Positions 4,717-59,885 of a stretch of 64,000 bases of DNA are shown here, one piece after another. Within the stretch, counting starts at the first letter, position 1, and each line of letters starts with the position of its first letter. Both the position numbers and the translations under genes were made by a program. Origin of the DNA: a bacterium (GTDB lineage Bacteria > UBA8248); contig OZ241875.1 of the NCBI GenBank assembly GCA_965203325.1, positions 2,528,001 through 2,592,000 of the forward strand. Reading direction: 5' to 3'. A model generated the notes under the pieces. It saw nothing but the letters and a program-made list of their open reading frames with translations. It was not told the DNA's origin and did no database searches.

Positions 4717-4869
4717 GCGAAATACCCGAAAGCCGCTGAGTGCCTGGCAGGAGACCGGGAGGAGTTGCTCGCCTTCTACGACTTCCAGGCGGGGCACTGG
4801 CAGAGCCTTCGGACGACGAACCCCATCGAGTCGACCTTCGTCACCATTCGCTTGCGAACGGCGAAGACG
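4717..4869 (+). mobile_element. IS256-family transposase fragment
   Basis: Translates to AKYPKAAECLAGDREELLAFYDFQAGHWQSLRTTNPIESTFVTIRLRT, matching the IS256 C-terminal motif. Confidence 0.75.
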
Positions 4870-6408
4870 GTCTCCGTGCCGGTACTGGACGACGCCATCG
4901 ACGAGGGCAAGGAGGTCATGCGGCTCCTGCTCTCGAACCCGAAGGGGGCGTATCTCAGGAACGTCCACAGGAAGGCGCGGGGGGTCATCACGAACGACGA
5001 CCCGCTGCAAAGGATGTGGCTCGCGCGCTTCGGCCGCGCGGCGGCGGGCCACGTCGCCGAGGCGATTGACGGACGCCTTTCGGGCGGCGGCGCTGCGGGC
5101 GTCGTGCTGGGCGGCCACAGCCTCACGGGCGGGGCGGAGCGCGATGCTCTCGAGTCGCGCCTCGCCGAGGCCCTGCTTGAGGAGAGGGAGGCCCGGCTCG
5201 GGCGCGGCGAGGAGGCGCCGGCGCCTTCGGTGCGCGAGGTCGCGATGTCCGATCTCCTCCTCGCGAGTTCGTTTCACATGGCCTCGGCGGAGAAGGTGGA
5301 CGCCGGCTCGCGCTGGTCGCTGTGGGGCCGGGGCGCGCGCTCCTCGTTCGAGGGCGCCGAGGGCGAACTCTCGCTGGATGGCGACGTGACGACGGCGACC
5401 GTGGGCTTCGACTACGAGCGGGCGCGCTGGCTGGTGGGCGTGGCGCTCTCGCGGAGTTCGGGCGACGGCTCATACAAAATGGGCGGCGCGTGCGACGCGG
5501 GCTGCGCGGGCGAGGTCGAGAGCGCCCTGACGGGTGTCTACCCCTACGCGCGCTACCGTGTGAGCGGGACGTTCTCGCTCTGGGGCGCGGTGGGCCACGG
5601 GCAGGGGGAGATGACGCTCACGCCCGGGGGGTCGTCCCCGCTGGAGGCCGACGTCGCGATGGGCATGGCGGCGGCGGGGGCGCGCGGGGTCGTTCTGCCC
5701 GCGCGCGAGGCGGGCGGGTTCGAGCTCGCGCTCCGCGCGGACGTCCTGGTGACGAACACGCGCTCGGACGCTGCGGCGGGCCTCGCGGAGACCGAAGCGC
5801 AGACGAGCCGCGTGCGCCTCGTGCTGGAGGGTTCGCGCTCGCTCAGGTTCGGCGATGCGGTGCTGACGCCCTCGCTGGAGATAGGGTTCCGGAACGATTC
5901 GGGCGACGCGGAGACGGGCGGCGGGGTGGAGGCCGGCGGCTCTGTCCGCTGGGCCTCGGGGGCCCTGACGACGGAGTTGCGCGCGCGGAGCCTGCTCTCC
6001 CACGGCGAGAGCGGTTATGAGGAATGGGGCGTGAGCGCCTCGGTGGCGTACGCTCCCGGCTCCGGGGGACGGGGCCTCACGCTGCGGGCGGGCTCCTCGT
6101 GGGGCGCCTCCACGGGCGGTGCGGAGCGGCTCTGGTCGCAGGCGGCGGGCCTGGCGCCTGCCGGTGCGTTCGAGCCGGGCGGTGCGGGCTTCGAGGCCGA
6201 GGCGGCCTGGGGCCTCGACGCCCCGCGGGGGCTGCTGACGCCCTATACGGGCGTGGCGGTCACCGGGGACGCGGAGACCTGGCGCGCGGGCGCGCGGTGG
6301 AAGCCCGGTGCGGCCACGGAGGTGAGCCTCGAGGCGAGACTCACCGAACAGGCCGGCGGCGGGAGACCCGAAGGCGGCCTCCTGCTCAAAGGCTCGAAGC
6401 GGTGGTAG
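4858..6408 (+). pseudogene. 5'-truncated Calx-beta/autotransporter gene, paralog of 29238-32603
   Basis: Near-identical to ~31055-32603; lacks the signal peptide and most of the passenger; fused in frame to the IS256 fragment; ends in W. Confidence 0.8.
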
Positions 6409-12989: not shown

Positions 12990-13279
12990 GGGTTGTTGTA
13001 AAAGTCCCTTTTCAAGGGGGTAGAGGGAACACCCTCTCACGACTGGAAAAGCACCCCCCCTACCCCTCCTTGTCAGGGGGGTAAAGGCGATGCCCCCCGA
13101 CGAGGAGGTGGAAGAAAAGCCCCCTTGTCAGGGGGATAGGAAAAGGCGACGCTCGCCGCTGGTAAAGGGATTTTTGTTTTTTCTTGCCCCCCTGACAAGG
13201 GGGGGTAGGGGGGGTGCCTTTATCCCCTGACAAGGGGGGCGAAAGCGGTGCCTCCGGCGAGGGGCTTTTTCAACAGCCC
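12990..13279. repeat. MITE/REP-like palindromic element
   Basis: Imperfect terminal inverted repeats GGGTTGTTGTAAAAGTCCCT / AGGGGCTTTTTCAACAGCCC; four internal CCTTGTCAGGGG / CCCCTGACAAGG units. Confidence 0.65.
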
Positions 13280-25358: not shown

Positions 25359-25655
25359 CCCCCGTTTCGGCCGAAAACCACGTAAGTCCTTGTACATCAA
25401 ATATATAAATTACCATTTATTTATCGAAAGACACGTTCATAGTCCCGCCCTATAGACAATCGTACGACTGGATACCCATAAACACGATAAACTCCTGTAT
25501 TAAAAGCGATAATTATCATATTTTCTTTTTCACCTCCCCTTGCATTTACGTCATATTTACGCTATAACGGACGCATATTTGATGCCGGACGTATGCGATT
25601 TGATTACGGATCGTCCATATCCTCCGGCCTGTGCCACGATTTCCTGGGAGTCCCC

Positions 25656-26837
25656 ATGCCGAAAAGAAGCGAACGCAAGCTTACCAAACGCGTGGTCGAT
25701 GCGCTATCCGTCGAGACGAACGACGCCGTCTTCTGGGACCGGGAGCTGGCGGGCTTCGGAGTGCGGGTCTACGCCACGGGCCGGAAGGTCTACGTGGTGC
25801 AGTCACGGGGTCCGTGGGGTCCCAAACGCGTGGCGCTGGGCAAACACGGCGAGATGTCCACTGATGAGGCGAGGAAGACGGCGGCCGGCGTCATCGACCG
25901 CATCAAGCGGGGCGAGGAGCCCGAGCCCAAGCCGCCCGAGGCGGCGCCCACGGTGGAGGGGCTTGCCGGGCGTTTCATGCGCGACCATGCCGAAACGCAC
26001 TGCAAGCCCGACACCGTCAGACTGTACAGTTCCCTGCTCGGGAACCACATCGTTCCGGCGCTGGGCGGGACCAGGCTCGCCGATGTCGGCCGTGCGGAGG
26101 TATCGGAGTTGCACCACCGGTTGCGTGAGACGCCCGCCGTGGCCAACGCGGTGGCGGGCCTTCTCTCCAGAATGTTCAAGATGGCCGAGGCGTGGGGACT
26201 GGTTCCGCCCGGGGAGAACCCGTGCCGGGGGCTGCGCCGCTACCGGACGCGCAAGCGCGAGCGGTTCCTGACGCCAGAGGAGTTCCGCCGCCTGGGCCGG
26301 GCGCTCAGGGAGATTGAGGCCGAGGGGAATGCGTGGCCGGCCGCGGCCGCGGCGATCAGGCTCCTGGCGCTGACCGGGTGCAGGCGGGGCGAGATACTGG
26401 ATCTGAGGTGGGACGACGTGGACCGCACGACGGGTGAACTCAGGCTCCGGGACGCCAAGGCGGGCCCGCGCATGGCGCCCCTGACCAAACCCGTATCGAG
26501 GGTGCTGGAGGGGATCCCCCGCTTGTCGGACAACCCCTGGGTGATCTCTTCAAGGCATGGGAGGGGCCGCCTGGGGAACCTCTCCTACTACTGGGGGGCC
26601 GTGAGGGAGCGGGCGGGGCTTCATGATGTCCGCATTCATGACCTTCGGCACTCGTACGCCAGCCGGGCGCTGGCGCTAAACGAGAGTCTGTCCGCGATCG
26701 GCAGGCTGCTCGGACACCATCACGTGGTGAGCACGGCGCGCTACGCGCACCTGATGCGGGACGCCGAGAAGGCGGCGGCCGCCCGGGTGGGCGAGAGCAT
26801 CGGCGTCCACGTCACGAACGGGAGGATGGAGCGATGA
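25656..26837 (+). CDS. Tyrosine integrase with N-terminal arm-binding domain
   Basis: WDRELAGFGVRV; TGCRRGE, HDLRHS, LLGH, RY catalytic set. Confidence 0.93.
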   Translation: MPKRSERKLTKRVVDALSVETNDAVFWDRELAGFGVRVYATGRKVYVVQSRGPWGPKRVALGKHGEMSTDEARKTAAGVIDRIKRGEEPEPKPPEAAPTVEGLAGRFMRDHAETHCKPDTVRLYSSLLGNHIVPALGGTRLADVGRAEVSELHHRLRETPAVANAVAGLLSRMFKMAEAWGLVPPGENPCRGLRRYRTRKRERFLTPEEFRRLGRALREIEAEGNAWPAAAAAIRLLALTGCRRGEILDLRWDDVDRTTGELRLRDAKAGPRMAPLTKPVSRVLEGIPRLSDNPWVISSRHGRGRLGNLSYYWGAVRERAGLHDVRIHDLRHSYASRALALNESLSAIGRLLGHHHVVSTARYAHLMRDAEKAAAARVGESIGVHVTNGRMER

Positions 26838-28000
26838 CGAAGCCCGCCATGAAAACGCTATCGAACCGGCTGGTGAGGAAACTCACTGTCGAGAAGGACA
26901 CTGTTTTCTGGGACCGCGATCTGACCGGCTTCGGGGTCCGGGTCTATCCCACCGGCTCAAAAGTCTACATCGCCCAGGCGCGGGGTCCCGAGGGCCCCAA
27001 ACGCGTGGCGGTGGGCCGCCACGGCGTTATCCATGCGGAGGAGGCCAGGAAGCGCGCGGCGCTCGTCATCGCGCGCATCAAGGCGGGCGAGGAACCTGTG
27101 CCCGAGCCGATGAAGCCGGCCTGCGGTCCCACGGTGGCCGGGCTGGCGAGGCGCTATCTCGAAGAATACGTTTCCGTGCGGTGCAAGCCGCGCACCGTGA
27201 AGACGCTCCGCTCCGTGGTCGGCAGGAACATCGTCCCGGCGCTGGGCGCAATGCCGATATCCGCGGTCGAGCGCAAACACGTGGCGGAACTCCACGGGCG
27301 GCTGAGCGCCACGCCCGCGTCGGCGAACCATGCCGTCCGGGCGCTGTCCGCGATGTACCGCCTCGCAGGTGAATGGGGTCTCGTGCCCGAGGGCATGAAC
27401 CCGTGCCGCGCCATCGCCGAATACCCGGTCGGCCGGCGGGAGCGCTTCCTCACCGAGGCGGAATTCGACCGACTGGGACGCGCACTCGACAAAGTCGAGA
27501 CGGAGGGCGGCGCGTCCGCGTCAGCCGTGGCCGCCATCCGTCTCCTGATGCTGACCGGGTGCCGGAAGTCGGAAATCCTCACGCTGCGCTGGGAGGAGGT
27601 GACGCTCGATCAGGCGGAACTGCGGCTCACCGACTCCAAGACGGGCGCACGCGTCGTTTCGCTCTCGGAGCCCGCGGTGAAACTCCTCGCGGGTCTGCCG
27701 CGCACCCCCGGGGATCCCTGGGTCATTCCCGGTAGGAAGCCGGGAACGCACCTGCGGAAGCTCGACGACGCCTGGCAGGCCGTCCGCTCGCGTGCGGGGC
27801 TCGCCGACATGCGCCTCCATGACCTGCGCCATTCGTTCGCATCGCGCGCTCTCGCGCTCGGCGAGGGACTTTCTGTGATAGGCAAACTCCTTGGCCACGC
27901 CAGGATCGAGACCACCTCGCGCTACGCCCATCTCGCGCGCGATTCGGTGCGCGAATCAGCCGAGCGGGTCGCCGAGAGCATCGCCGAAGACATGCTGTAG
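26834..28000 (+). CDS. Second tyrosine integrase, paralog of the first
   Basis: TGCRKSE, SKTG, HDLRHS, LLGH, RY; ATGA overlap with the upstream integrase. Confidence 0.93.
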   Translation: MTKPAMKTLSNRLVRKLTVEKDTVFWDRDLTGFGVRVYPTGSKVYIAQARGPEGPKRVAVGRHGVIHAEEARKRAALVIARIKAGEEPVPEPMKPACGPTVAGLARRYLEEYVSVRCKPRTVKTLRSVVGRNIVPALGAMPISAVERKHVAELHGRLSATPASANHAVRALSAMYRLAGEWGLVPEGMNPCRAIAEYPVGRRERFLTEAEFDRLGRALDKVETEGGASASAVAAIRLLMLTGCRKSEILTLRWEEVTLDQAELRLTDSKTGARVVSLSEPAVKLLAGLPRTPGDPWVIPGRKPGTHLRKLDDAWQAVRSRAGLADMRLHDLRHSFASRALALGEGLSVIGKLLGHARIETTSRYAHLARDSVRESAERVAESIAEDML

Positions 28001-28112
28001 GCCACCGGGCGCAACTCCCGGGAAACCCGGCCGATGATAAGCGGTTTTCCTGTATCTCAATCCCCGGCCCCGAACGGGTCTTCTCCATCGCGTTGTCTCA
28101 CGTTTTTTGTCA

Positions 28113-28185
28113 TACCCCTACGCGCGCTACCGTGTGAGCGGGACGTTCTCGCTCTGGGGCGCGGTGGGCCACGGGCAGGGGGAGA
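28113..28185 (+). repeat. 73-bp fragment of the autotransporter beta-domain gene
   Basis: Identical to 5539-5611; near-identical to ~31734-31806. Confidence 0.85.
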
Positions 28186-28417
28186 CGTCGATGAACGCGC
28201 GGGGGAGAACCACCTGAACACGCGGGAGGCGGCCGCCTGGCTCGGCCTCTCGCCCAAGACGCTGGAGCGCTACCGCGTGAGCGGAGAGGGACCGGATTTT
28301 CTTCGCACCGGATACCGGGTGCGCTACCTGCTCGAAGACCTCGAGAAGTGGGCCTCCGCCCGGAGGTGGACTTCCACGTCCGAGGAGAGAGCCGCCCGGA
28401 GGAGGAAGAGGCGGTAG
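28180..28417 (+). pseudogene. 3' part of excisionase-like HTH gene (copy of 58803-59040)
   Basis: HLNTREAAAWLGLSPKTLERYRVSGEGP; N-terminal domains missing. Confidence 0.8.
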
Positions 28418-28504: not shown

Positions 28505-28809
28505 TCACAGGCCGTAGCGCAGCCTCGCCATCGCGGCCACGGCCGCCGAGTGCCCCCCTCGTAGATATCCCCCAGGTACGCCGCTATCCCGGCGTCGGTC
28601 TCGGGGTTTCCCGAGCGCTCGAATCCCCTGAGCGCCGTCTCGTACACTCGCCGCGTGTTCTCAGACATCGACGCCTTCGCCAGGTCGGCGGCCGCACGGG
28701 CCGGTCGGGCCGGCCTCCTCGTCAAAGCGATGTCCTGCGTCGGGTCGGATGGTCTTGCCCCCGTCGTCATGGCGAGAAGCCAACCTTCCAGATCGGCGAC
28801 CGTGTCCAT
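28505..28809 (-). pseudogene. Internally deleted copy of the Cre-like recombinase at 57841-58773
   Basis: 5' and 3' ends of the gene joined at CGCGATGGCG (675-bp deletion) plus one G lost from a G-run. Confidence 0.85.
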
Positions 28810-28920
28810 TGCCTAGGGCCGCCCGAGCGCCTCCTTGATTGCCAAGTATGGACGACGACGGGGAATTTCCATAAAAAAAGCCGTTTCGCAAACGAATACC
28901 GGCGAAACGGCGGGTTTCTG

Positions 28921-29127
28921 GAGTCCGATAATTGCCATTATCGGAAAACATAACACCTCTGAAAGCCATGTCAAGCGCGATTTCGGGGTCCCCGGAGGGG
29001 TTTCGGGCGCCTTTTTGCGTCTTTTTTCGCTCATGTTTCGCTCATTTGCGGCCCGAATGCGCCCCGAAACGGGTTTTTCGGCGGAAAACAAGGCTTCTGG
29101 GGGCCAATAATGGCAATTAGCGGACAC
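28921..29127. promoter_or_regulatory. Candidate invertible promoter, cassette 1
   Basis: GAGTCCGATAA-TTGCCA-TTATCGGAAAA (28921-28948) and GGGGCCAATAA-TGGCAA-TTAGCGGACAC (29100-29127); spacers are reverse complements; minus-strand TTGACA-N16-TATGTT inside (28974-28947). Confidence 0.75.
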
Positions 29128-29237
29128 CAGCCCGGGTTCGAGGTGGGCGCATACCGCAGGAACATGTGTCTCGCGGAAAGACTCACTACCGGCTGCGTCA
29201 GCTTGAACCCGAAATCACGGAACAGGGGGCATTCCAA

Positions 29238-32200
29238 ATGAAGAACATTGCACGGATTTCGATGCTGCCGGCGGCGGCGTTCTGCAGCGCGGCCCGGCGG
29301 CGTGAAGTGCGCCCCGCCGGAGTGCGCGAGCCGGCTTCTCCGACGGGATCATACCAGCGGTCTGACCCGCGTCCCGGGCGCTTCCGCGCCCGCCTCTTCG
29401 GTCTCCTCCCCGTCCTTGCGTTGCTGGTAGGCGCCCTGTTCCTCCTCACCGCCGCGCCGGTCGAGGCACAGACCAAGACCTTCTCCATCACCGAGAGAGC
29501 CCGCGCTGCGGAGGGTGCCAGCGCCTCCCTGACTATCACCCTGAGCGAGGACGCGCCAAGCGCCGGGGTCGCGTTCACGGTCACCGCCGGATTCGGCGGT
29601 TCGTCGACCGCAGAGGCGGCGGACGTGATGTCCATCGACTCGCCGGTGACAATTCCCAGCGGCACCAGGAGCCTGAGTATCGCAATTCCCCTGACCGACG
29701 ACGACATGGATGAGGACGAGGAGACTTTCACTGTCACTATCGCCACTACGGCCGAGGGCTGGATGAAGGAAGGGGATGGCAAGGATACTGCCGTGGTCTC
29801 CATCGACGACGACGACAACGCCGGAGTCAACCTCATCGGTGTCAGTACCATCAGTAACGATAAGGGCCCAAAGATCGGGCATCTCAACGTGTACCAAAAC
29901 ACTCCGGCGACCTACCAAGTGGTGCTGACCAGCCGGCCGGTTGCGGATGTGACCATCAATGTGTCTGCGACGATGTGGAACAGTGTGTCCCCGGCGTCGC
30001 ACACCTTCGCCGCGAGTTCCGCGAATGACTGGAGGGAGCCGAAGGAGTTCACCGTAACTGCCGGTAGTCGCATCGGTAGTGCGCTCATCCTTCACACCGT
30101 GACAACTAGCGACCCCAACTACGGCACTCTTCAGTACAGCGACTGGTCTCACACTTCCAACAAACTACTACTGGACATCCGACCGCCCTTGCCGATGCCG
30201 ACTCGCCTGACGCTGCGCGCCGATCGCCTGCCGGCCGAGGGCGAAGGGGCAGTGACGGTGACGGCGACGCTGGACAATCCAGCGCCCTGGAGCGGCACGA
30301 CGGTCAGGCTCACCCTCTCGGGCACAGCCGCTGGTGAAGGAACCGACTACACGCTGTCGTCGACCACGATCAGCATCGGTGCAGCCCAGACGACCGGGAC
30401 GACGACCATCACGGTCACCGACGACAGCGCGGACGACGACGACGAGACCATCGTGCTGGAGGCGAGCAGCGGTAACCCGGAGCTGACTTCAAACAAGCTG
30501 ACGCTGACCATTGAGGACAACGACCAGACGGCGCAGCAGCAGCGCACGGAGCCGCTGACGGCGGCGTTCGAGCGGGCGCCGGCGGCGCATGACGGCACGG
30601 AGACGTTCCGGTTCAACGTGCGCTTCAGCGAGGCGCTGGGCGAGACCGCGAACGCCCCAGAGGTCGCCTCGTTCGCCGTGCGGGGCGGCAAGGTGAAGCG
30701 CGTGCGAAAGGTGGAGTCCGGCCTGTGGCGGGTGCGCATCGCGCCGAAGTCGTGGAAGGACGTGACGGTGACGCTGGCGGGCGGCCGCGCCTGCGATGAG
30801 GCGGGCGCGGTGTGCACGGCCGACGGGAGGTCCGTGTCGAACACGTCGACGATGACCATCGGCGGCCCGGTGCGGATCCGGGTCGAGGGCGCCCGGGCGA
30901 AGGAAGGCAGGGACGCATCGCTCGACTTCGCGGTGACGCTCAACCGCGCGGCGGCGCACGAGGTCTCGGTGGACTATGAGACCGCCGACGAGACGGCGAC
31001 GGCGGGGGCCGACTACACGGCGGTCTCCGGCACGCTGACCTTCGCGGCCGGCGAGACGGCGAAGACGGTCTCGGTCCCTGTGCTCGACGACGCCATCGAC
31101 GAGGGCAAGGAGGTCATGCGGCTCCTGCTCTCGAACCCGCAGGGGGCGTTCCTGCGAGGCGTGCACACCAAGGCGCGGGGGGTCATCCGCAACGACGACC
31201 CGCTGCAAAGGATGTGGCTCGCGCGCTTCGGGCGCGCGGCGGCGGGCCACGTCGCCGAGGCGATTGAAGGACGCCTTTCGGACGCCGCCGCGGGCGTCGT
31301 GCTGGGCGGCCACAGCCTCTCAGGCGGGCCGGAGCGCGAGGCCATCGAGTCGCGCCTCGCCGAGGCCCTCCTCAAGGAGAGGGAGGTCCGGCTCGGGCGC
31401 GGCGGGGAGGCGCCGGCGCCTTCGGTGCGCGAGGTCGCGATGTCCGACCTCCTCCTCGCGAGTTCGTTTCATATGGCCTCGGCGGAGAAGGTGGACGCCG
31501 GCTCGCGCTGGTCGCTGTGGGGCCGGGGCGCGCGCTCCTCGTTCGAGGGCGTCGAGGGTGATCTCTCGCTGGAGGGCGACGTGACGACGGCGACCGTGGG
31601 CTTCGACTACGAGCGGGCGCGCTGGCTGGTGGGCGTGGCGCTCTCGCGAAGCGCGGGCGACGGCTCGTACAAGGCGGGCGGCGCGTGCGATACGGGCTGC
31701 GCGGGCGAGGTGGAGAGCACGCTTACGGGTGTCTACCCCTACGCGCGCTACCGTGTGAGCGGGACGTTCTCGCTCTGGGGCGCTGTGGGCCACGGGCAGG
31801 GGGAGATGACGCTCACGCCCGGGGGGTCGTCCCCGGTGGAGGCCGACGTCGCGATGGGCATGGCGGCGGCCGGGGCGCGCGGGGTCGTTCTGCCCGCGCG
31901 CGAGGCGGGCGGGTTCGAGCTCGCGCTCCGCGCGGACGTCCTGGTGACGAACACGCGCTCGGACGCTGCGGCGGGCCTGGCGGAGACCGAGGCGCAGACG
32001 AGCCGCGTGCGCCTCGTGCTGGAGGGTTCGCGCTCGCTCCGGTTGGGCGAAGGCCTGCTGACGCCCTCTCTGGAGATAGGGTTCCGGAACGATTCGGGCG
32101 ACGCGGAGACGGGCGGCGGGGTGGAGGCCGGCGGCTCGGTCCGCTGGACCTCGGGGGCCCTGACGACGCAGGTGCGCGCGCGCGGCCTGCTCTCCCACGG

Positions 32201-32603
32201 CGAGGGCGGTTATGAGGAATGGGGCGTGAGCGCCTCGGTGGCGTACGCTCCGGGCTCCGGGGGACGGGGTCTCACGCTTCGGGCGGGCTCCTCGTGGGGC
32301 GCCTCCACGAGCGGTGCGGAGCGGCTCTGGTCGCAGGCGGCGGGCCTGGCGCCTGCCGGTGCGTTCGAGCCGGGCGCCGCGGGCTTCGAGGCCGAGGCGG
32401 CCTGGGGCCTGGACGCCCCCCGGGGACTCCTGACGCCCTATACGGGCGTGGCGGTTTCGGGGAACGCGGAGACCTGGCGCGCGGGCGCGCGCTGGAAGCC
32501 CGGGGCGGCCACGGAGGTGAGCCTCGAGGCGAGCCTCACCGAACAGGCGGGCGGCGGGAGACCCGAAGGCGGCCTCCTGCTCAGAGGCTCGAAGCGGTGG
32601 TAG
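29238..32603 (+). CDS. Calx-beta repeat autotransporter/adhesin
   Basis: Extended signal peptide ending APVEAQ, repeated Calx-beta-like motifs (DDDMDEDEETFTV, GADYTAVSGTLTF), C-terminal beta-barrel ending in W. Confidence 0.85.
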   Translation: MKNIARISMLPAAAFCSAARRREVRPAGVREPASPTGSYQRSDPRPGRFRARLFGLLPVLALLVGALFLLTAAPVEAQTKTFSITERARAAEGASASLTITLSEDAPSAGVAFTVTAGFGGSSTAEAADVMSIDSPVTIPSGTRSLSIAIPLTDDDMDEDEETFTVTIATTAEGWMKEGDGKDTAVVSIDDDDNAGVNLIGVSTISNDKGPKIGHLNVYQNTPATYQVVLTSRPVADVTINVSATMWNSVSPASHTFAASSANDWREPKEFTVTAGSRIGSALILHTVTTSDPNYGTLQYSDWSHTSNKLLLDIRPPLPMPTRLTLRADRLPAEGEGAVTVTATLDNPAPWSGTTVRLTLSGTAAGEGTDYTLSSTTISIGAAQTTGTTTITVTDDSADDDDETIVLEASSGNPELTSNKLTLTIEDNDQTAQQQRTEPLTAAFERAPAAHDGTETFRFNVRFSEALGETANAPEVASFAVRGGKVKRVRKVESGLWRVRIAPKSWKDVTVTLAGGRACDEAGAVCTADGRSVSNTSTMTIGGPVRIRVEGARAKEGRDASLDFAVTLNRAAAHEVSVDYETADETATAGADYTAVSGTLTFAAGETAKTVSVPVLDDAIDEGKEVMRLLLSNPQGAFLRGVHTKARGVIRNDDPLQRMWLARFGRAAAGHVAEAIEGRLSDAAAGVVLGGHSLSGGPEREAIESRLAEALLKEREVRLGRGGEAPAPSVREVAMSDLLLASSFHMASAEKVDAGSRWSLWGRGARSSFEGVEGDLSLEGDVTTATVGFDYERARWLVGVALSRSAGDGSYKAGGACDTGCAGEVESTLTGVYPYARYRVSGTFSLWGAVGHGQGEMTLTPGGSSPVEADVAMGMAAAGARGVVLPAREAGGFELALRADVLVTNTRSDAAAGLAETEAQTSRVRLVLEGSRSLRLGEGLLTPSLEIGFRNDSGDAETGGGVEAGGSVRWTSGALTTQVRARGLLSHGEGGYEEWGVSASVAYAPGSGGRGLTLRAGSSWGASTSGAERLWSQAAGLAPAGAFEPGAAGFEAEAAWGLDAPRGLLTPYTGVAVSGNAETWRAGARWKPGAATEVSLEASLTEQAGGGRPEGGLLLRGSKRW

Positions 32604-33022
32604 GGGCGGACCCGGGGGTAGCGCAGGCCGTCCCTCCCGGCCCGCTTCACCGCGGTCCCCCTCCCGGCGGGAGGGGGACCGCATCCCGCTCTCCCGCGTG
32701 GTTTCAGGCAGTGGGGGGTTTCCAGCAGGGGTGAAATCTTTGTAGTTTCTTGAAACTATTGTGAGTAATGGTTTTTGGAGGTTTCTTTCGGAATTCGATT
32801 TCCGCAATCCGTAATCAACTCGGCAGCGGATGAATTATAACTCCTGCGTAGCTCGGAGATCCTCTGTCGGAGCACCCTCCAAAATTCGGCTCGTGTCGGC
32901 TTAGTTGCGGTCATGATCCGTCACTCTGCAACGTTGGTTCAGAAACCACTGGTCCACGCCCAGATGAAATGCCAGCCTTGCTGACTTGTTTCATCAGCCT
33001 GTTGGACCCTTACGTGATAATA

Positions 33023-34123
33023 CTATAATCGATTAGGTTTCGGTGCTGCAAAAAACCAGAGAATTTTGTCGAAATAGTCGTGAAAGGCAAAAAGCCAATA
33101 TTCAGAACGGACAAAATGATGAAACCTAGACAATGCCTCGTGGCTGTCAAAGAATGACGTAATCACACCTTTTCCAAATCCATCCACTTTGATCTGTTCA
33201 ATTTCTTGAAGTTCACATCCGATCTTGTTGCAAATCCAACTGATAGATTCATCAGAAATTTTATTTTTATCAGATAATTCTTTTAGCTTTCGCCCGCAAA
33301 TTCCTTCTTTGATATCGAAATACAGCCAAAGGCATTCCTCTGGCGGTATCTGTTCATTTTGTGAAATCAATCCATCTAATCGATCGAAGTGCCGGTATCC
33401 ATGATACGCTGCCATCTCCTTGAATAGATGATATGGTATGTAGTTCTCCAACTCTCTTCCAACAGTAGTAATTCCTATCCCGATGAAACAACTTTGACCG
33501 GATATATTTCCGCAATTCCTTTTTCTATATATAGAAATCACCTTATTCGCCGTAGCCGATTTCTTGCCATTAGGTGCCAGGCTGTCATGATCGACGACGC
33601 AGACTACAACCCTCTGCTTATCTATTTCCTGCTCAAAAATACTAGCTATGCTCGAACCGCCACCATGTATTGGATCGAATTCATAGGAAGGAACGTGGGA
33701 AAGCTTTTTCGTTTCACATAGTATTTGCTTGTAAAGCTGGATATCCGAATCGCTATCCTCAACCACAAAACTCGTACACGTGGATAAATATTTACCGTTG
33801 AGCAGCGCCCTATGACCGATGACAAAAGTTTTCTTTCCATCGAAGGAAACCGACCCATCGCCCAGCACTACATTCACGTACACACGAGCTACGCGCAACA
33901 TATCCCCTCGAACTGCATACTTTTCATGAATTGAAGTAAGGTACGTCTTATCTCGCTGTGACAAGTGAAGATTCTCAACCGCCCATTTACATAGTTCTCT
34001 ACGCGATATAAAGAAATGTCTACCGGAGCGATCAGATTCGATAAGCTGCGCAAACACATCCTCTAGTTCACCGTTTTCGGTGTCCGAAAGTTCCTCAACA
34101 GTGCTTTGCAAACGAAAAATCAT
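33023..34123 (-). CDS. Hypothetical protein with TOPRIM-like motifs
   Basis: FVVED, HGGG, VVDHD and RELENY pattern; coupled to the upstream ATPase. Confidence 0.6.
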   Translation of the reverse strand: MIFRLQSTVEELSDTENGELEDVFAQLIESDRSGRHFFISRRELCKWAVENLHLSQRDKTYLTSIHEKYAVRGDMLRVARVYVNVVLGDGSVSFDGKKTFVIGHRALLNGKYLSTCTSFVVEDSDSDIQLYKQILCETKKLSHVPSYEFDPIHGGGSSIASIFEQEIDKQRVVVCVVDHDSLAPNGKKSATANKVISIYRKRNCGNISGQSCFIGIGITTVGRELENYIPYHLFKEMAAYHGYRHFDRLDGLISQNEQIPPEECLWLYFDIKEGICGRKLKELSDKNKISDESISWICNKIGCELQEIEQIKVDGFGKGVITSFFDSHEALSRFHHFVRSEYWLFAFHDYFDKILWFFAAPKPNRL

Positions 34124-35724
34124 TAGTCAGAATAATTGAAAAAACCAAATGGCCAATCGGTCAACGCGCCCGTATCATCAAATCTCGCTAGCGAAACCAC
34201 CGTAGGTGAACTTAAATCGTCCTGAGCCGAAAATATGACAATCTGGATTTCACTCGAACTAACCTTACCTTCCTCAACGAGTTCACCCAACCGATGGATC
34301 AATGCCTCGCTATGTGTTTCAATTACTAGTCTTATTCCCGGTTGGGTATCACCATCCACAATTGTTCGGTTTGCAGCAACAAACACATCTGCTAGCTTAG
34401 CCTGATGGGCTGGGTGCAAGTGTAACTCGGGTTGTTCAATCGCAAGTGTTTGCAAACTTGACCGTCGCTGCCGAGGCATTCTTGATATAGGACTTCGGTG
34501 CTGAGCCCACCATATCATCCCAAGTACGGGCAATATTTGGGACACGCCGTATCCAGTGTCGGTCACATTTACGGACCTTTTATCTGAAAGCACTTGGACA
34601 CTGATGTGGCCAGAGGTTTCATGCACCTTAACGCCATACCCAAATATTCCCTCTACCCACTTTGAGAATCTTTCGAGTTCTCTCGGTGCCAAAGACGCTA
34701 GAAACATGGGAAAGTTTGCCCCGTTCGGGGCAATCTCTGAGACTTCGAGCTCTTGTTTGCGGTAGAAACGCTCGCTCGCCGCCCTAACAGGCTCTAAGTA
34801 CCCCACGTTTAGGAAATATTCAGTCAATTGGTCCTCAAGAATCTCCAATACTGAAAACACACGTGCCAAGCGTTGAATGGAGAATACTTGAGTTTTAAAT
34901 TTACTTTTCTTTTTGGACAAAAGATGTTGATAAATCTTCTTGAAAGTCACAGTACTGGATGTATCTTGTAATTTGCTTATTGTCGATGAATCGAAGCGAT
35001 TTTCTGAAAGAACTCTCCTTGCTTCCCTCAGTAATGTTCTATTACTCAATGCTCTGTTTGCCTGATTGCTGAAGGCATTTACCAATACCTCAGCAAGAAC
35101 ACCAGCAGGTCTTAACAGCCTGTTCGCTCCCCCTTCCTTTTCCATCGTCTTCGATATGAAACGTGGTGGAGAAAAGAGATTTCTATTGATCCTTATCAGG
35201 TTATATGTATTTGGAAGGAAGTCAGCATGAGCACCGTTAATAATAATCTTGCCGTCGGATCCTTGATGTGATCGAAAATTAAAATGAATGTCTATATCTT
35301 CATCCGGAATCTTTACTTCTATGCTGTTCAAAACAGTCGTATCTTCTATTGCGCCAATCAAATAACGTATGGCAACACACTCTACCTGAACAACCCCTCG
35401 ATGTTGGTAGTATTCATCGTGATAATATAAATTCGCACGATTTAAGCCACGCACGTCAGATATTGTAAACCGGAATGCGGCTTGGCGTTCGTTTTCATTT
35501 TCTCCGACGGCCACATTTATGTCACCAAAATCAACCAAATCACCATACCAGAGAATAGGAGCACTACTTCGTGTTTCTAGTGACTGGCGAATGAGAGGGA
35601 GTGAACGCAAGAAGGTACTTTTCCCTGCGCTGTTTCTTCCCACCAGAACCGTAATTGGGCGCAATTCAATTTCAGGGAAATCCCGTATGCGTCTTATGTT
35701 CTCAATTGCATACGCTAGTTTCAT
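34123..35724 (-). CDS. ABC-type ATPase (AAA_15/AAA_21, DUF3696-like)
   Basis: GRNSAGKS, GYGVSQILP, IEQPELHLHP, IETHSE, WPFGFF. Confidence 0.88.
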   Translation of the reverse strand: MKLAYAIENIRRIRDFPEIELRPITVLVGRNSAGKSTFLRSLPLIRQSLETRSSAPILWYGDLVDFGDINVAVGENENERQAAFRFTISDVRGLNRANLYYHDEYYQHRGVVQVECVAIRYLIGAIEDTTVLNSIEVKIPDEDIDIHFNFRSHQGSDGKIIINGAHADFLPNTYNLIRINRNLFSPPRFISKTMEKEGGANRLLRPAGVLAEVLVNAFSNQANRALSNRTLLREARRVLSENRFDSSTISKLQDTSSTVTFKKIYQHLLSKKKSKFKTQVFSIQRLARVFSVLEILEDQLTEYFLNVGYLEPVRAASERFYRKQELEVSEIAPNGANFPMFLASLAPRELERFSKWVEGIFGYGVKVHETSGHISVQVLSDKRSVNVTDTGYGVSQILPVLGMIWWAQHRSPISRMPRQRRSSLQTLAIEQPELHLHPAHQAKLADVFVAANRTIVDGDTQPGIRLVIETHSEALIHRLGELVEEGKVSSSEIQIVIFSAQDDLSSPTVVSLARFDDTGALTDWPFGFFNYSD

Positions 35725-36378
35725 TTTCTTGCCCTTATAGTGCTGCTACCCAAAACTGAGAACGTTGCGCTTGTTCGTACATAAGCAGCTCATTTGACCT
35801 TTCGTGCACATAGCATTCGAATCTCTTGCGCACCACCGAGAGATTGTTCCTAACGGGATAATGGCATCGGCGCTGAATCTTGATTAATGTTATCTCACCT
35901 GCGTTGACTGATAAAGGTCCCTCGTTGCTGCAAGCAGTTCCGACCCCCAGTGTTGCGGGAGACCTAAAAGTCATCGGCAAGCATGTGGTGAGAGACAACT
36001 TCTTAGTGAATTCCAAAACTATTCCATTATGAATTTTCCTGTGTGCTACCCGAGGTGGCCAATCAATTTCCGTATGCTTGCTAGTGATCGGTGAAAGCTA
36101 TACTGATGAAAGGGCTTCCTTGATAGATGCAAAAATCCTTCTGTGTACTATGGCCGTGTCAGCGCCGCTACGCAATTATCTCTTGACTACCTTATCACGC
36201 ATGCAGGATCCCGTACCGCATTGGAAGTTCGCTCGCCTTAAGTATATTTCTGCTACCGGAAATAGAACCATCATATTCTCGGCTATGCACGTCTCGCTCC
36301 CGGTGTACGTGCTGGACCCCTCATTGCTAATCAGGCCCGGCCAATCGAAGCCCTTCAATAGCGAGGGAAAACCACTCT

Positions 36379-52602: not shown

Positions 52603-54750
52603 CTACTCCTGCCTGTTCGCGGCGAAGCCGCCGACCATCCGGCCCTCGTGGCCGTATTCCGCGGAGAATTGCCCGGTCACGGCCCCCGGAACGCCGCCCT
52701 CGTCGGGATTCCGGAATTTTCCGTTCCACTCCCCGCCGGCCTCGGCCGTATCCCCGCCGATGGTCCACTTCGTCTTGCGGGGCGGCAGGGCATCGAGGAA
52801 GGTTCCTAAACCCGGAACAGTGACCGCCGCGCCGACGCCGTCGCCCAGAATGTCACCATTGTCATAGATGCCCTGTTCCATCAGCTCGACGGACCAGTCC
52901 CGGGCCTCGCCGTCAGCGCCGACCTTGAACTGGTCGAGGGCGCCCGTGACCGTGCTCTCGTGGAAGTCGGCCTCCAGCACCGCCCGCGCGGTGAAGCGGC
53001 CGGACTCGTTGGCGCCGCCGGTGGTGCTGCTCGTAAGGGCGTAGAGGCCGGCCGCGCTGCCGCTGTAGCTCGCGGTCCCGCCCACGGACCTCAAGTCATT
53101 ACGCGTCTCCGCGCCATAATTTCCCCCACCTATTGCGCTTGCAATGTAGTCCCCCTCGGCCGGCTTGTAGAGCCACCAGCCGTAATAGCTGTAATGGGCC
53201 AGCGGCGCCGTCACCCGGGCGCCCGGGTCGTCGGGCTTGAAGGTCCACGCGGCGGCGGTGTGGTTGAACACATTGGCCGCACTCAGAAGGCCAAGCGTGA
53301 ATCCGGCGGTGACATCAGAAGCTCCTAGAGCGTCGGTGGGGTTGGGTTTGACGTCGAGGCGGACGGCGCAGGTGTTGCCGGCGGTGGGCGTGCAGCTGTA
53401 GGTGCCGGGCACCCCGTGGAAGCTGCCGTCGATCTTCACGGCGATGTGGTTCTCCGGCAGTTCGAACTTCTTGAACCCGGCGCGCTGGTCGAAGCTCGGG
53501 CTCTCAATCTTGTCCCGGTTCCGATCGAGTGCCACGATCGTGGAAGGCAGCACCCCGCCGGTCAGGTCATACACCTCATCGAGGGGAAGGCCCTGCTCGC
53601 GCTCTTCTTCGCGCGTGTAGACGTAGGCTTCCGCCGTGCCGCCGTCGGCGAATTCGTGCGTGTACCGCTTGCCCTCCCAGCCGCGGTTGCCGGGAACCAT
53701 GGTCTCCTTGTCTTCCGAAAGGGATTGTGGGGAACCATGGGTGGCGTCCGCCCCGGTGGTGGTTACTCCGGCGATGCGCAACGCGAAAGTGTTCCTGCCT
53801 ATTATTGCGATGCTGACATCTCCGGCCCTTGCCTGGGGCTTCAGGTCGATCCCCGCATACAGCTTCGCAGCCTCTGCCACCATCTCCGCATCCGCGGCCT
53901 TCTGCTCGTCTTCCATGGCCTTATCGAAGGCGGCTTGCGCCGTTTGGATCGGCGCCGCCGCATTGTCCGCCTCTCGCACATACGTAGCCTTTTCCGCGTC
54001 GGTCAGGTCCGCGCCATCCGCAATCGCGTCGTTCAGAGCGGTGAGGGCACTGTCGGCGGCGTCGAGCTGCGCCTGCGTTGGCGTCGAACCGAAAAGCGCC
54101 TCGAGGGCCGCCTGGAGCGCCGTGGAAGCATCCGACAGCGCCGTCCTCTGGTTCATCCGGCGCGTCGCGGTGTCGATACCGCCCTGCGCACCATCTACGG
54201 CAGCCACGGCGTCGTCGAGTTGCGTCATGTACATGGCCTTGTCTTCATCGCTCACGTCGTCCGCATCTTCCAATGCCTGCCTGAGAGCGCGGATGGCTTC
54301 GTTGGCGGCGTCAACCATCTCCTGCGTCGACAGGTCGGACGTGTCGATCATGCCGGCCGCGGCCGCCAGAGCCGTTTTCTGCGCATCGGCCCGAGCCATC
54401 GTCGCGAGCGCCGCCACGCGGGCATCGACCGCCGCCTGAAGCATCTCGCCCGCCGTGGCGGTAACGTCGTCCTTCACCGCATCGTAAGCCGCCTGGGCGG
54501 CTTCCGCCGTGGCGGCCGCCGCGATGTTCGCGAGCGCCGCATTAATCGCGACCTGTGCGGGCGTCAAGCATTCACCACCCACATATTGATTGCCCGCGGC
54601 CGTGCACGTCTCCTCCGGTGTCGGCATCGGGGGCGGTTCCTCAACTGCAGCCGTCCCGCCGCCGCCGCCGCAGCCGGCCAGCGCGATGGCGAACACGGCC
54701 GCCAGCGCGAAGGCGTAGAGCCTGGTTATCGGTTTCTCTTTGAACGTCAT
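52603..54750 (-). CDS. Surface lipoprotein with TbpB-like C-terminal barrel
   Basis: Lipobox LAGC-GGGGG, Ala-rich helical stalk, GTASYSGSAAG...MVGGFAA. Confidence 0.8.
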   Translation of the reverse strand: MTFKEKPITRLYAFALAAVFAIALAGCGGGGGTAAVEEPPPMPTPEETCTAAGNQYVGGECLTPAQVAINAALANIAAAATAEAAQAAYDAVKDDVTATAGEMLQAAVDARVAALATMARADAQKTALAAAAGMIDTSDLSTQEMVDAANEAIRALRQALEDADDVSDEDKAMYMTQLDDAVAAVDGAQGGIDTATRRMNQRTALSDASTALQAALEALFGSTPTQAQLDAADSALTALNDAIADGADLTDAEKATYVREADNAAAPIQTAQAAFDKAMEDEQKAADAEMVAEAAKLYAGIDLKPQARAGDVSIAIIGRNTFALRIAGVTTTGADATHGSPQSLSEDKETMVPGNRGWEGKRYTHEFADGGTAEAYVYTREEEREQGLPLDEVYDLTGGVLPSTIVALDRNRDKIESPSFDQRAGFKKFELPENHIAVKIDGSFHGVPGTYSCTPTAGNTCAVRLDVKPNPTDALGASDVTAGFTLGLLSAANVFNHTAAAWTFKPDDPGARVTAPLAHYSYYGWWLYKPAEGDYIASAIGGGNYGAETRNDLRSVGGTASYSGSAAGLYALTSSTTGGANESGRFTARAVLEADFHESTVTGALDQFKVGADGEARDWSVELMEQGIYDNGDILGDGVGAAVTVPGLGTFLDALPPRKTKWTIGGDTAEAGGEWNGKFRNPDEGGVPGAVTGQFSAEYGHEGRMVGGFAANRQE

Positions 54751-57522: not shown

Positions 57523-57738
57523 GCCGCCGTTAATTGATGTTATCGGACTCCAGAAACCCCGTTTTCCGCCGAAAAACCCGTTTCGGGGCGCATTCGGGCC
57601 GCACATGAGCGAAACATGAGCGAAAATAGACGCAAAACGGCGCCCGAAACCCCTCTGGAGACGCCGGAATTGCGCTTGACATGGCCGTGAGAGGTGTTAT
57701 ATTTTCTGATAACATCAATTATCGGACTCCAGAAACCC
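57523..57738. promoter_or_regulatory. Candidate invertible promoter, cassette 2
   Basis: GCCGCCGTTAA-TTGATG-TTATCGGACTC (57523-57550) and TTTTCTGATAA-CATCAA-TTATCGGACTC (57702-57729); spacers are reverse complements; TTGACA (57676)-N16-TATATT (57698) with TGn extension. Confidence 0.8.
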
Positions 57739-57840
57739 GCCGTTTCGCCGGTATTCCCCTGCGAAACGGCTTTTTTTGTGGAAATTCCCCGCCGTCGTCT
57801 ATACTTGGTAATCGAGGAGGCGCTCGATCGGCCTCAGGGA

Positions 57841-58773
57841 ATGGAAACGGCCGCCGACCCGGAACAGAACATCGCTTTGACGAGGAGGCCGGCCCGACCG
57901 GCCCGTGCGGCCGCCTACCTGGCGAAGGCGTCGATGTCTGAGAACACGCGGCGAGTGTACGAGACGGCGCTCAGGAGGTTCGAGCGCTCGGGAAACCCCG
58001 AGACCGACGCCGGGATAGCGGCGTACCTGGGGGATCTCTACGAGGGGGGGCACTCGGCGGCCGTGGCCGCGATGGCGGTCGCGGCGCTTCGCTTCCGGGC
58101 GAAGCTGAACGACCGGCCCTCCCCGGTGGGGGCGGCCTCGGAGCGGGTGCTGGCCGGCTTCAGGCGCCTGGCCGCAGAGCGCGGCCGCGGCCAGGTGGCG
58201 GGGGTGCGCTGGGAGCAGGCGGACCGCGCGGCGGCGCTGGCCGAGGGGACGGGGACACTGGCCGGTCTGCGAGACGCGGCGATCGTGGCGGTGGCGAGCG
58301 ACGCCCTGCTCCGGGTGTCGGAGGTCGAGGCGCTCGACGTCGAGGACGTGGACCTGGACGAGCAGACGGTGCTGATCCGCCGCTCGAAGACCGACCAGGA
58401 GGCCGAGGGCGTCGTGCAGTTTCTGGGCGAGCCGACGGTGGCGCGCGTCCGGGCCTGGCTGGCGCGCGCGGGTCTCGGGGAGGGAGCGCTCTTCCGGGGC
58501 GTGTACAAGGGGGGACGACTTCGGCCCGGGCGCCTGACGGAGAGGAGCATCCGGAGCATCATCGCGCGGTGGGGGAAGGCCGCGGGCGTGGAGGGGCGCA
58601 TCAGCGGGCACAGCCTGCGCGTGGGGGGCGCGCAGAGCCTGGCCACGGCGGGGGCGTCGCTGGTCGAGATGCAGATTGCCGGGCGCTGGCAGTCGCCGGT
58701 CATGCCGGGGCGCTACGCGCAGGGACAACTCGCGAAACAGGGCGCGATGGCGAGGCTGCGCTACGGGCGGTGA
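57841..58773 (+). CDS. Cre-like tyrosine recombinase
   Basis: LLRVSE, RRSKTDQ, SGHSLRVG, GRW, GRYA give a complete R-K-H-R-W-Y set; no arm-binding domain; start codon uncertain. Confidence 0.9.
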   Translation: METAADPEQNIALTRRPARPARAAAYLAKASMSENTRRVYETALRRFERSGNPETDAGIAAYLGDLYEGGHSAAVAAMAVAALRFRAKLNDRPSPVGAASERVLAGFRRLAAERGRGQVAGVRWEQADRAAALAEGTGTLAGLRDAAIVAVASDALLRVSEVEALDVEDVDLDEQTVLIRRSKTDQEAEGVVQFLGEPTVARVRAWLARAGLGEGALFRGVYKGGRLRPGRLTERSIRSIIARWGKAAGVEGRISGHSLRVGGAQSLATAGASLVEMQIAGRWQSPVMPGRYAQGQLAKQGAMARLRYGR

Positions 58774-58802: not shown

Positions 58803-59522
58803 CTACCGCCTCTTCTTTCTCCGGGCGGCTCTCTCCTCGGACGTGGAAGTCCACCTCCGGGCGGAGGCCCACTTCTCGAGGTCTTCGAGCAGGTAGCGCA
58901 CCCGGTATCCGATGCGAAGAAAATCCGGCCCCTCGCCGCTCACGCGGTAGCGCTCCAGCGTCTTGGGCGAGAGGCCGAGCCAGGCGGCCGCCTCCCGCGT
59001 GTTCAGGTGGTTCACCTCCGCGAGTTCATCGACGTCTCCCGCGGCCCCGGGTTCCCCGGCGGCGTCCCACGTCCCGTCGAACGGGTCGGGCAAGTCCGCG
59101 AGCCTCTCGCGTATGGCGCGGACCTCCTCTCCCGTCGCGTTGGCCGCCATCCAGGCGCGCACCCGGTCGAAGGTCTTGAGATACGGCGAGGCGCCCCGGC
59201 GCAGCCTCCCCACGAAGGAGGGATTCCCCACGGTCTCCTCGCCCAGGATCGAGACCTTGGTCCCGCTCACCGCGAGAAACGCCTCGACCTCGGCCCGCAG
59301 GAGCGGTCTCAGGGGCGGGTACCCCATGAACGCGAGCACCCGGTCCGCCGTGTCGACCCGAAGGGGCCGCCCCCGGGCGTACAGTCCCACGAAGCCGGGA
59401 ATCCCCAGCGCGCCCACCCCGAAGCGCCTCGCGCTCATCCCTCGGCGCGCGCGCCAGAGCGCAATGCTCCGGCGCAGCCGCTCGTCCAGCGGGGTGCCGG
59501 TATCGTCGTCGAACGCGGTCAT
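58803..59522 (-). CDS. DNA-binding protein: two Cro-like repeats plus C-terminal excisionase-like HTH
   Basis: Repeated G(M/T)S..(F/L)G....G.P.FV..L..G motif; LNTREAAAWLGLSPKTL. Confidence 0.75.
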   Translation of the reverse strand: MTAFDDDTGTPLDERLRRSIALWRARRGMSARRFGVGALGIPGFVGLYARGRPLRVDTADRVLAFMGYPPLRPLLRAEVEAFLAVSGTKVSILGEETVGNPSFVGRLRRGASPYLKTFDRVRAWMAANATGEEVRAIRERLADLPDPFDGTWDAAGEPGAAGDVDELAEVNHLNTREAAAWLGLSPKTLERYRVSGEGPDFLRIGYRVRYLLEDLEKWASARRWTSTSEERAARRKKRR

Positions 59523-59759
59523 GGCGCGCGAACATAAGGAAAGTGCGAGCGCCCGTTCAATCGTTGTTTCTAGCGCGGAAGGTACACCCGGGAAGAGTCC
59601 GCGCCTGCGTCGGTGCGCGGATCGCTCATCGGTTCAGCCTGAAATCAAGGGGGTTTTCCCGAAAACGAGGGTCGCCGGAGAACGTGCAGCGAGACGCTGC
59701 GGAAAAAAAGGAAGGACGCCGCCCCCCGGGCGAGAGCTCGAAAGCCTCTTTCGTTCACG

Positions 59760-59885
59760 CCGCGGCGCTCTGTTTCGCGAGTCGTCCCTGCGCATGACCG
59801 GCGATTGGCGGCGCCCGGCGAGTTGCATCTCGACCGGAGAAGCCCCTGCCATGGCAAGGCGCTGCGCGCTGCCCGTCCGCAGGGC
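59760..59885 (-). pseudogene. Degenerate third remnant of the recombinase C-terminus
   Basis: LRTGSAQRLAMAGASPVEMQLAGRRQSPVM vs LRVGGAQSLATAGASLVEMQIAGRWQSPVM. Confidence 0.75.

Follow-up and report, generated by a model that had tools for sequence, protein, structure and literature searches.

Short invertible promoter segments and the recombinases that act on them are known from several bacteria. The fimS switch of E. coli is a single locus with 9-bp repeats that is inverted by the direction-biased enzymes FimB and FimE and needs IHF and Lrp. Bacteroides invertons are served by Mpi, a serine invertase of capsule promoters whose sites share one core and so lack spacer diversity, and by Tsr tyrosine recombinases. 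The loxP site of phage P1 has a 13-8-13 layout with a 6-bp exchange region. Here we describe a 64,000-nucleotide stretch of a Nitrospinota genome (the window; GTDB lineage Bacteria; UBA8248, assembly GCA_965203325.1, contig OZ241875.1, positions 2,528,001 to 2,592,000) that carries two homologous invertible-promoter cassettes, B in front of an autotransporter-like gene and A in front of a lipoprotein gene. The 6-bp spacers at the two ends of a cassette vary together across the family, and B is likely a member of a multi-copy family of invertible promoters with Cre-like recombinases that has lost its own recombinase.

The closest parallel is found in C. difficile, where the RecV switches (flgB, cwpV, cmrRST and others) carry at each end a 6-bp spacer flanked by two binding motifs. 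The available text of that study (Cell Rep 2025) describes a ‘spacer code’, identical within a switch and different between switches, and proposes that it avoids recombination with the wrong repeat (PMC12282940). The family described here is similar to RecV in that a tyrosine recombinase would act in trans on several invertible segments, in the build of the sites (two motifs around a 6-bp spacer), and in that the spacers are identical within a switch and can differ between switches. It differs in that RecV is one enzyme with six unrelated switches, whereas the present genome has 16 homologous cassettes, most with a recombinase gene or remnant of their own and six with the gene intact. The spacers here are also not all unique, the enzyme is Cre-like and comes from a different phylum, and the evidence is comparative (59 cassettes, 23 spacers) rather than experimental.

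A second comparison is with Cre/loxP. The sites in the window share with loxP the 34-bp length, the palindromic arms and the asymmetric core, and the catalytic Trp position of Cre is kept in the enzyme. Recombination by Cre needs identity of the core, and spacer variants give orthogonal site sets; according to the accessible sections of one study, spacer mismatches lower cross-reaction, and mismatched sites that do recombine are restored to one parental sequence (PMC10850332). Engineered heterospecific lox sites follow the same spacer logic, as far as those sections and a second source available in part describe them (PMC10850332; PMC11260471). In contrast to these, the present system is natural rather than engineered and concerns chromosomal promoter inversion rather than plasmid dimer resolution. 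The identity of the enzyme to Cre is low, its N-terminal domain aligns in part, and the arms are unrelated to loxP as far as our tools show.

With fimS the family shares a short invertible promoter segment for a surface structure and adjoining tyrosine recombinase genes, and it differs by its many copies, its lox-like 34-bp sites and its variable crossover core. Like the Bacteroides invertons, it comprises many invertible promoters per genome for alternative surface structures, with recombinases shared in trans (PMC10403206 and PMC8748976, each as far as its text is available). In the literature we found no description of a covarying core in Bacteroides invertons, no account of the present cassettes and no report of phase variation among Nitrospinota from sponges, and neither spacers nor Nitrospinota come up in the available portion of a survey of bacterial invertons (PMC11602134). 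In mechanism the system follows what is known for Cre-like enzymes. What is added here is a clean natural record of core covariation, an intermediate caught in one cassette (c3371), and evidence for recombinase-less copies served in trans.

The two spacers of a cassette change together

Cassettes A and B are homologous 199-bp units with 20-bp inverted sites whose starts lie 179 bp apart (Table 1), and with their flanks they form a 351-nucleotide inverted repeat of 87% identity. In each, an inverton-type segment lies between inverted repeats (28925/29104 and 57527/57706). An earlier note on the window had stated that the spacer-to-spacer length is 185 bp in both units (28932 to 29116 in B), which the site coordinates bear out exactly, and that the spacers of A and B differ at three of six positions with each being the reverse complement of its partner, which also holds. 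A relaxed site pattern gave 7 matches in the window compared with 2.18 expected, the four real sites having 0-2 mismatches; these counts, together with the recurrence of the 179-bp pairing 16 times in the genome, exclude chance as the source of the sites. With 7 outer bp on each side, where the arm bases are conserved in the alignment, the 20-bp site becomes a 34-bp lox-like site. The flank TTCTGGAGT was considered as a direct repeat that would indicate attP/attB-like asymmetry, and this was ruled out by an alignment of 59 sequences. The alignment explains the repeat: a 14-bp arm is common to three of the four half-sites, and the -10 box overlaps the remaining one.

The genome is a single contig of 4.39 Mb (60.4% G+C) that contains 16 cassettes, all with the 179-bp site spacing, and a looser site search of the genome gave no cassettes beyond these. 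Among 40 other genomes, whole-genome searches detected the cassette in 12; of the 22 that belong to the same genus, 11 have it. The comparative set holds 59 cassettes with both sites from 12 genomes, among them the window's own (G000) and that of a related species that likewise has 16 cassettes (G012). Two partial matches (G002:C151:1-72 and G011:C28:19795-19924) were not fetched, five loci (L015, L028, L037, L038 and L039) were dropped as duplicates of others, and L027, a weak match without sites, and L055, a copy cut by a contig end, were set aside. In a scan of a genome collection with a 20-mer from the cassette interior, 39 of 43 stretches came from the same Nitrospinota assemblies; the other four, from other phyla, had no sites and were about as many as expected by chance, and the four matches in metagenomes were all without sites.

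In 58 of the 59 cassettes the left spacer, reverse-complemented, gives the right one exactly, and 23 distinct hexamers are in use. Random re-pairing of left and right spacers gave 3.35 +/- 1.75 matches, and the highest count reached in 10000 shuffles was 12. When the two sites were treated as a helix on the 59-row alignment, 99.7% of the spacer cells were complementary and all six pairs changed on both sides, none on one side only. The helices formed by the arms were complementary in only 84.3% and 78.6% of cells, and a control in which the partner was slid by 1-3 columns gave 21-56%. Since the arms are far less complementary than the spacer, the requirement for identity is specific to the 6-bp core, which marks the spacer as the strand-exchange region of a tyrosine recombinase; the hexamer is the predicted crossover core of the Cre-like enzyme. 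The proposal of the earlier note that spacer matching is maintained within a cassette is well supported by these data, and the tabulated spacer pairs show that pairing across homologs is not random.

Positions 3-6 of the spacer are the fastest-changing columns of the unit. On a parsimony tree built without the spacer columns, which is short and noisy and makes the figures rough, they took 15, 20, 8 and 12 steps compared with a mean of 2.76 and a maximum of 15 for 201 other columns, and spacer type as a single character changed 41 times. Nucleotide diversity at the same positions is 0.3-0.55 compared with 0.095 in the cassette interior. The hexamers draw on a narrow alphabet, in most cases TT-R-H-Y-R. 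The first two positions are T in 54 of 59 cassettes, a pyrimidine stands at position 5 and a purine at position 6 throughout, and palindromic spacers are absent.

The only unmatched cassette, c3371 (L012, G000:C1:3371526-3371724), pairs a left TTGCCA with a right TTGCCG. It and c1029, which has TTGCCG at both ends, are recent duplicates; the interiors of the two are 100% identical, and the near-identity on both sides of the left site (98-100%) argues that the mismatch is a fresh point change at one end. The same identity rules out c3371 as a site-specific recombinant of B-like and c1029-like cassettes. Flank mosaicism was seen among class I cassettes and is not assignable to site-specific exchange. 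In B this G-to-A change, as compared with the TTGCCG group, is found at both ends. Taken in order, c1029, c3371 and B look like the states before, during and after a concerted change, which likely proceeds via repair of the recombination heteroduplex in the core; c3371 may be caught midway in such a change, or it may be a switch that is locked.

Recombinases, promoters and cassette orientation

The intact recombinase encoded beside A has Cre chains as its best solved relatives (E 4e-13). In alignment with Cre the Arg, Lys, His-x-x-Arg, Trp and Tyr positions of the phage-integrase catalytic domain are kept, within the motifs LLRVSE, RSKT, HSLRVG, GRWQS and GRYAQ. The corresponding gene of B has lost the catalytic domain through a large internal deletion; tblastn covers residues 5-70 only, and the remnant has no Pfam match. 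Six intact recombinases, 77-96% identical, are encoded in the genome (at c0705, c1308, c1412, c1827, c2078 and A), and the single recombinase that the earlier note envisaged for all switches must be replaced by these paralogues. An enzyme is thus at hand for both cassettes of the window, adjacent in the case of A and at the six other loci in the case of B. A fragment resembling recombinase residues 257-304 lies inverted at 59758-59888, beyond the helix-turn-helix (HTH) gene of A, and similar fragments occur near c1996 and c4230.

One recombinase-deletion junction is common to seven cassettes (B, c1029, c3371, c3869, c1262, c1996 and c4230), which indicates that the deletion happened once, before the copies spread. 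A blastn search with the B cassette found 13 of the 16 copies collinear with B and three with an inverted interior (c2078, c2672 and c3869). In these three the interior runs opposite to the flanks on either side and the change of direction falls within the two sites, which is the trace that site-specific inversion leaves. Of the three, c3869 has the common deletion junction and c2672 is without any recombinase remnant, so at least one inversion has taken place in a cassette without an enzyme of its own. This implies that recombinase-less copies can be flipped in trans, and it agrees with the earlier view that B, its recombinase deleted, would need the enzyme in trans. Over the 12 genomes, 7 of the 59 cassettes are in the inverted state and 52 are off as assembled.

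The collinear counterpart of A in the related species G012, L048, retains both TTGATG and the orientation. In the same region (G012:C2:2391164-2397367) a TTGCCA cassette in the on orientation, L052, lies 5.7 kb from L048, and the two are placed in tandem, not convergently. It may be that the A/B spacer pair is old and that the 28-kb arrangement came about by rearrangement. L052 might be the positional counterpart of B, though its flanks match c3869 and c4230 better.

Each cassette of the window has one sigma-70-like promoter match, compared with 0.2-0.3 expected in shuffled sequences, and the -35 hexamer, identical in A and B, is present in all 59 cassettes. Both predicted promoters face the recombinase side and away from the cargo in the assembly, that of B firing leftwards, as had been proposed when both cassettes were described as cargo-off. 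The predicted terminator of B folds at -32.8 kcal/mol (z score -4.7), and neither for B nor for A did any of 200 shuffles reach the stability of the terminator. A comparable hairpin with a T-run lies outside 14 of the 16 cassettes of the genome and 29 of the 59 overall. Since the transcript would run through the adjacent site into the terminator hairpin, the off orientation is predicted to be a dead end. A feedback loop in which the off-orientation promoter drives the recombinase was rejected because a strong predicted terminator sits between them. The leader of B folds no better than shuffled sequences, and an Rfam search of 28600-29500 gave no match.

We propose that the working unit is a 159-bp segment between inverted lox-like sites with one outward-facing promoter. 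In the assembled orientation of A and B the promoter would fire into the terminator just outside the switch and leave the cargo off. After inversion it would read via the conserved leader into the surface-protein gene, which is autotransporter-like with Calx-beta domains for B and a lipoprotein for A. Strand exchange would occur across the 6-bp spacer, which would demand identical spacers within a cassette and the copying of any change from one end to the other. In living cells B would depend for its inversion on one of the six intact enzymes from other cassettes. If Cre, FLP and RecV are a guide, the mismatch between A and B at three of six positions should prevent the joining of A to B and the inversion or deletion of the 28 kb between them.

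Proposed insulation between cassettes and competing explanations

The earlier note had also held the spacers to be private to each cassette, and this does not stand. The TTGATG of A is also the spacer of c1308, 1.28 Mb away, and the TTGCCA of B is also the left spacer of c3371. Eight spacer types serve the 16 cassettes of the genome; among their 120 pairs, the spacers are the same in 12, one base apart in 49, two apart in 43 and three apart in 16, and the A-B pair belongs to these 16 most different. Spacers are nearly unique in G012, where 16 cassettes use 13 types and 3 of 120 pairs coincide, and fully so in ten other genomes, where none of 35 pairs shares a spacer (seven of these genomes have two or more cassettes and three have one).

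Several observations weigh against the reading of B as one of many insulated switches that flip in trans. The 12 identical pairs come from TTGACG in four cassettes, TTGCCG in three, and TTGATG, TTGCTG and TTGCCA in two each (c3371 counted by its left site). If the enzyme is free, identical spacers elsewhere would make megabase inversions or deletions possible, so that either synapsis is limited to nearby sites or the cost is borne. For the 49 pairs that are one base apart, the accessible text on Cre indicates that about 10% cross-reaction can remain (PMC10850332). The HTH gene of B is truncated. Both orientations occur among paralogues and species and not within one locus. The 16 public runs are all kept as short assembled contigs; the four examined contained no strand-change joints and no piece that spans the switch, so that they give no read-level evidence on flipping either way. 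Finally, the promoter and the terminators are consensus and fold predictions only.

The diversity of the spacers can be explained in more than one way. It is quite possible, if short of probable, that the differences are neutral drift of a core that the recombinase does not read, in which the need for identity and heteroduplex repair keep the ends alike and insulation is a by-product. There is no signal of avoidance of shared spacers within genomes: sharing within genomes (15 of 275 pairs, 5.5%) is not below that between genomes (55 of 1436, 3.8%), as drift would have it, although the test is confounded by recent duplicates and by orthologues that keep their spacer (CTGTTA in G002, G010 and G011; TTGATG in A and L048). 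Recent duplicates do keep the spacer, as with c1029 and c3371 and with the four TTGACG cassettes. Spacer type tracks cargo class and lineage and does not track the recombinase paralogue, A and c1308 sharing TTGATG with the most divergent enzymes (78%); such independence fits an enzyme that does not read the core. Drift accounts less well for spacer columns that change as often as unconstrained flanks even though two sites must change together, for the lack of shared pairs in the ten genomes outside G000 and G012 and their rarity in G012, and for close paralogues of the same genome that have cargo flanks 87-93% identical and yet differ at 2-3 of the six spacer positions (L029/L040, L046/L054 and L063/L034). 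Pairs of the last kind hint at fast spacer divergence and are not decisive.

A more doubtful proposal is that the 6-bp core is an evolvable address under diversifying selection, in which changes would be copied end-to-end by heteroduplex repair, with c3371 as an intermediate, and would be favoured for stopping a few near-identical Cre-like enzymes from recombining different cassettes. Insulation would be partial, and across the genome the spacers do not form a private code.

It is improbable that the spacer variants chiefly set the flipping rate of each switch, through ease of melting or cleavage preference, with insulation secondary. The restricted alphabet suggests that the chemistry of the core matters, and the available text of the RecV paper ties spacer length to inversion frequency (PMC12282940). 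Differential inversion rates are known for Bacteroides invertons from another partly available source (PMC10403206). Rate setting leaves the covariation of the two ends beyond the identity requirement unexplained, however, and the great majority of cassettes (52 of 59) are assembled off whatever their spacer. That B is a dead relic frozen off, its matched spacers merely inherited, is very improbable: its recombinase has no catalytic domain, its HTH gene is 5'-truncated beside an autotransporter fragment and two phage-type integrases, and its passenger domain lacks a counterpart in the other genomes of the genus, so that its orientation there cannot be compared, but both sites, the predicted promoter and the 1121-codon cargo frame are intact, the G-to-A change came to both ends in concert and, given the junction common to seven cassettes, most likely after the deletion, and the recombinase-less c3869 and c2672 stand in the other orientation.

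Cargo, neighbouring genes and significance

Two classes of cargo are found in this genome. The B-like cargoes are giant proteins with fn3, cadherin-like and Calx-beta domains, and the A-like cargoes are proteins of 620-1070 residues without Pfam domains. The C-terminus of the B cargo resembles an autotransporter beta-domain in 29 of its 30 nearest ESM Atlas clusters (top score 0.97). The last 400 residues have no Pfam match even at E 10, PF03797 included, and the C-terminus has none in a PDB profile search; the AlphaFold model is all-beta, but its mean predicted local distance difference test score (pLDDT) of 43 is too poor for a fold search. In the 22 other genomes of the genus, the B cargo matches only in the conserved first ~270 bp and the Calx-beta stretch, and its passenger domain has no counterpart there. 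The A cargo matches Slam-dependent surface lipoproteins and the TbpB barrel weakly. It is followed by a paralogue at 52603-54750, with which it forms a tandem pair with 73-95% identical stretches, and the switch may therefore drive a two-gene operon.

Table 1. Features of the window that belong to cassettes A and B, in window coordinates
Feature	Position	Strand	Description
Cassette B, left recombination site	28925-28944		CCGATAA-TTGCCA-TTATCGG; spacer TTGCCA at 28932-28937, 7-bp arm on each side
Cassette B, right recombination site	29104-29123		CCAATAA-TGGCAA-TTAGCGG; spacer TGGCAA at 29111-29116, reverse complement of the left
Cassette B, promoter (predicted)	28974..28947	-	TTGACA-16-TATGTT, TG before the -10; sigma-70-like consensus match
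Cassette B, terminator (predicted)	28873-28911	-	Just outside the left site; 10-bp G+C-rich stem, then U7
Cassette B, leader	29124-29237	+	Right site to cargo start; first ~70 nucleotides conserved among cassettes (blastn matches extend to query position 319-341)
Cassette B, cargo	29238-32603	+	1121-aa surface protein; Pfam Calx-beta, E 3.5e-29; autotransporter-like C-terminal beta domain
Cassette B, recombinase remnant	28505-28809	-	Initial ~70-80 codons fused to the final ~10 at a short repeat
Cassette B, HTH_17 (excisionase-like) gene	28034-28417	+	PF12728, E 8e-08; 5' part replaced by foreign sequence
Autotransporter-like C-terminal-domain fragment	28113-28205	+	93 bp, fused ahead of the B HTH remnant
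Cassette A, cargo-side recombination site	57527-57546		CCGTTAA-TTGATG-TTATCGG; spacer TTGATG at 57534-57539
Cassette A, recombinase-side recombination site	57706-57725		CTGATAA-CATCAA-TTATCGG; spacer CATCAA at 57713-57718
Cassette A, promoter (predicted)	57676..57703	+	TTGACA-16-TATATT; sigma-70-like consensus match
Cassette A, terminator (predicted)	57739-57777	+	Between switch and recombinase gene; -33.4 kcal/mol, z score -5.9
Cassette A, recombinase	57841-58773	+	Intact, 310 aa; Cre-like tyrosine recombinase; PF00589, E 8.6e-19
Cassette A, HTH_17 gene	58803-59522	-	Full-length, longest frame 239 aa, HTH at residues 173-222
Cassette A, cargo	57291-55117	-	724-aa lipoprotein; signal peptide ends in LAGC

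The full-length HTH gene of A has a weak Xis match. Ahead of the truncated copy of B, the autotransporter-like fragment at 28113-28205 shares 90% identity with 5539-5631 and 31734-31826. A tandem pair of phage-type integrases (414 and 388 aa), both with Arm-DNA-bind_3, SAM-like and catalytic domains, occupies 25593-28000 directly to the left of this gene, and a mobile element may have caused its truncation. Further left, a 547-codon frame at 4765-6408 is 89-94% identical to the 3' part of the B cargo gene. No switch cassette precedes this frame, its start gives a weak Mutator-transposase match, and it is probably an orphan autotransporter-like C-terminal fragment. Directly after the B cargo gene, the G+C content falls to 0.39-0.44 at 33000-36000 compared with ~0.6-0.76 around it; this region, possibly a foreign insert, holds two long minus-strand frames (33023-34123 and 34123-35724). 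An inverted repeat of 38 nucleotides, rich in C- and G-runs and 92% complementary, lies at 13047-13221.

With B read as a likely member of a family of invertible promoters that has lost its own recombinase, the cassettes bear on a wider question. The ‘spacer code’ has so far rested on six C. difficile sites and on engineered lox variants. The present family is a natural test set of 59 homologous switches in which the arms hardly vary and the spacer takes 23 forms, and it also holds the lone mismatched c3371 and recombinase-less copies that still appear to flip. It makes testable how many differences are needed for insulation, how the two ends come to change together, and what a shared spacer costs.

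For these uncultured Nitrospinota, reported from sponge metagenomes, the cassettes suggest that two classes of surface protein, autotransporter-like adhesins with fn3, cadherin-like and Calx-beta domains and lipoproteins, are under phase variation, which would bear on how the bacteria handle recognition by host or phage. If the spacer does act as an address label, one enzyme family could run at least 16 independent surface-antigen switches without scrambling the chromosome, and the genus would offer, ready-made in nature, no fewer than 23 functional heterospecific sites for a single Cre-like recombinase.

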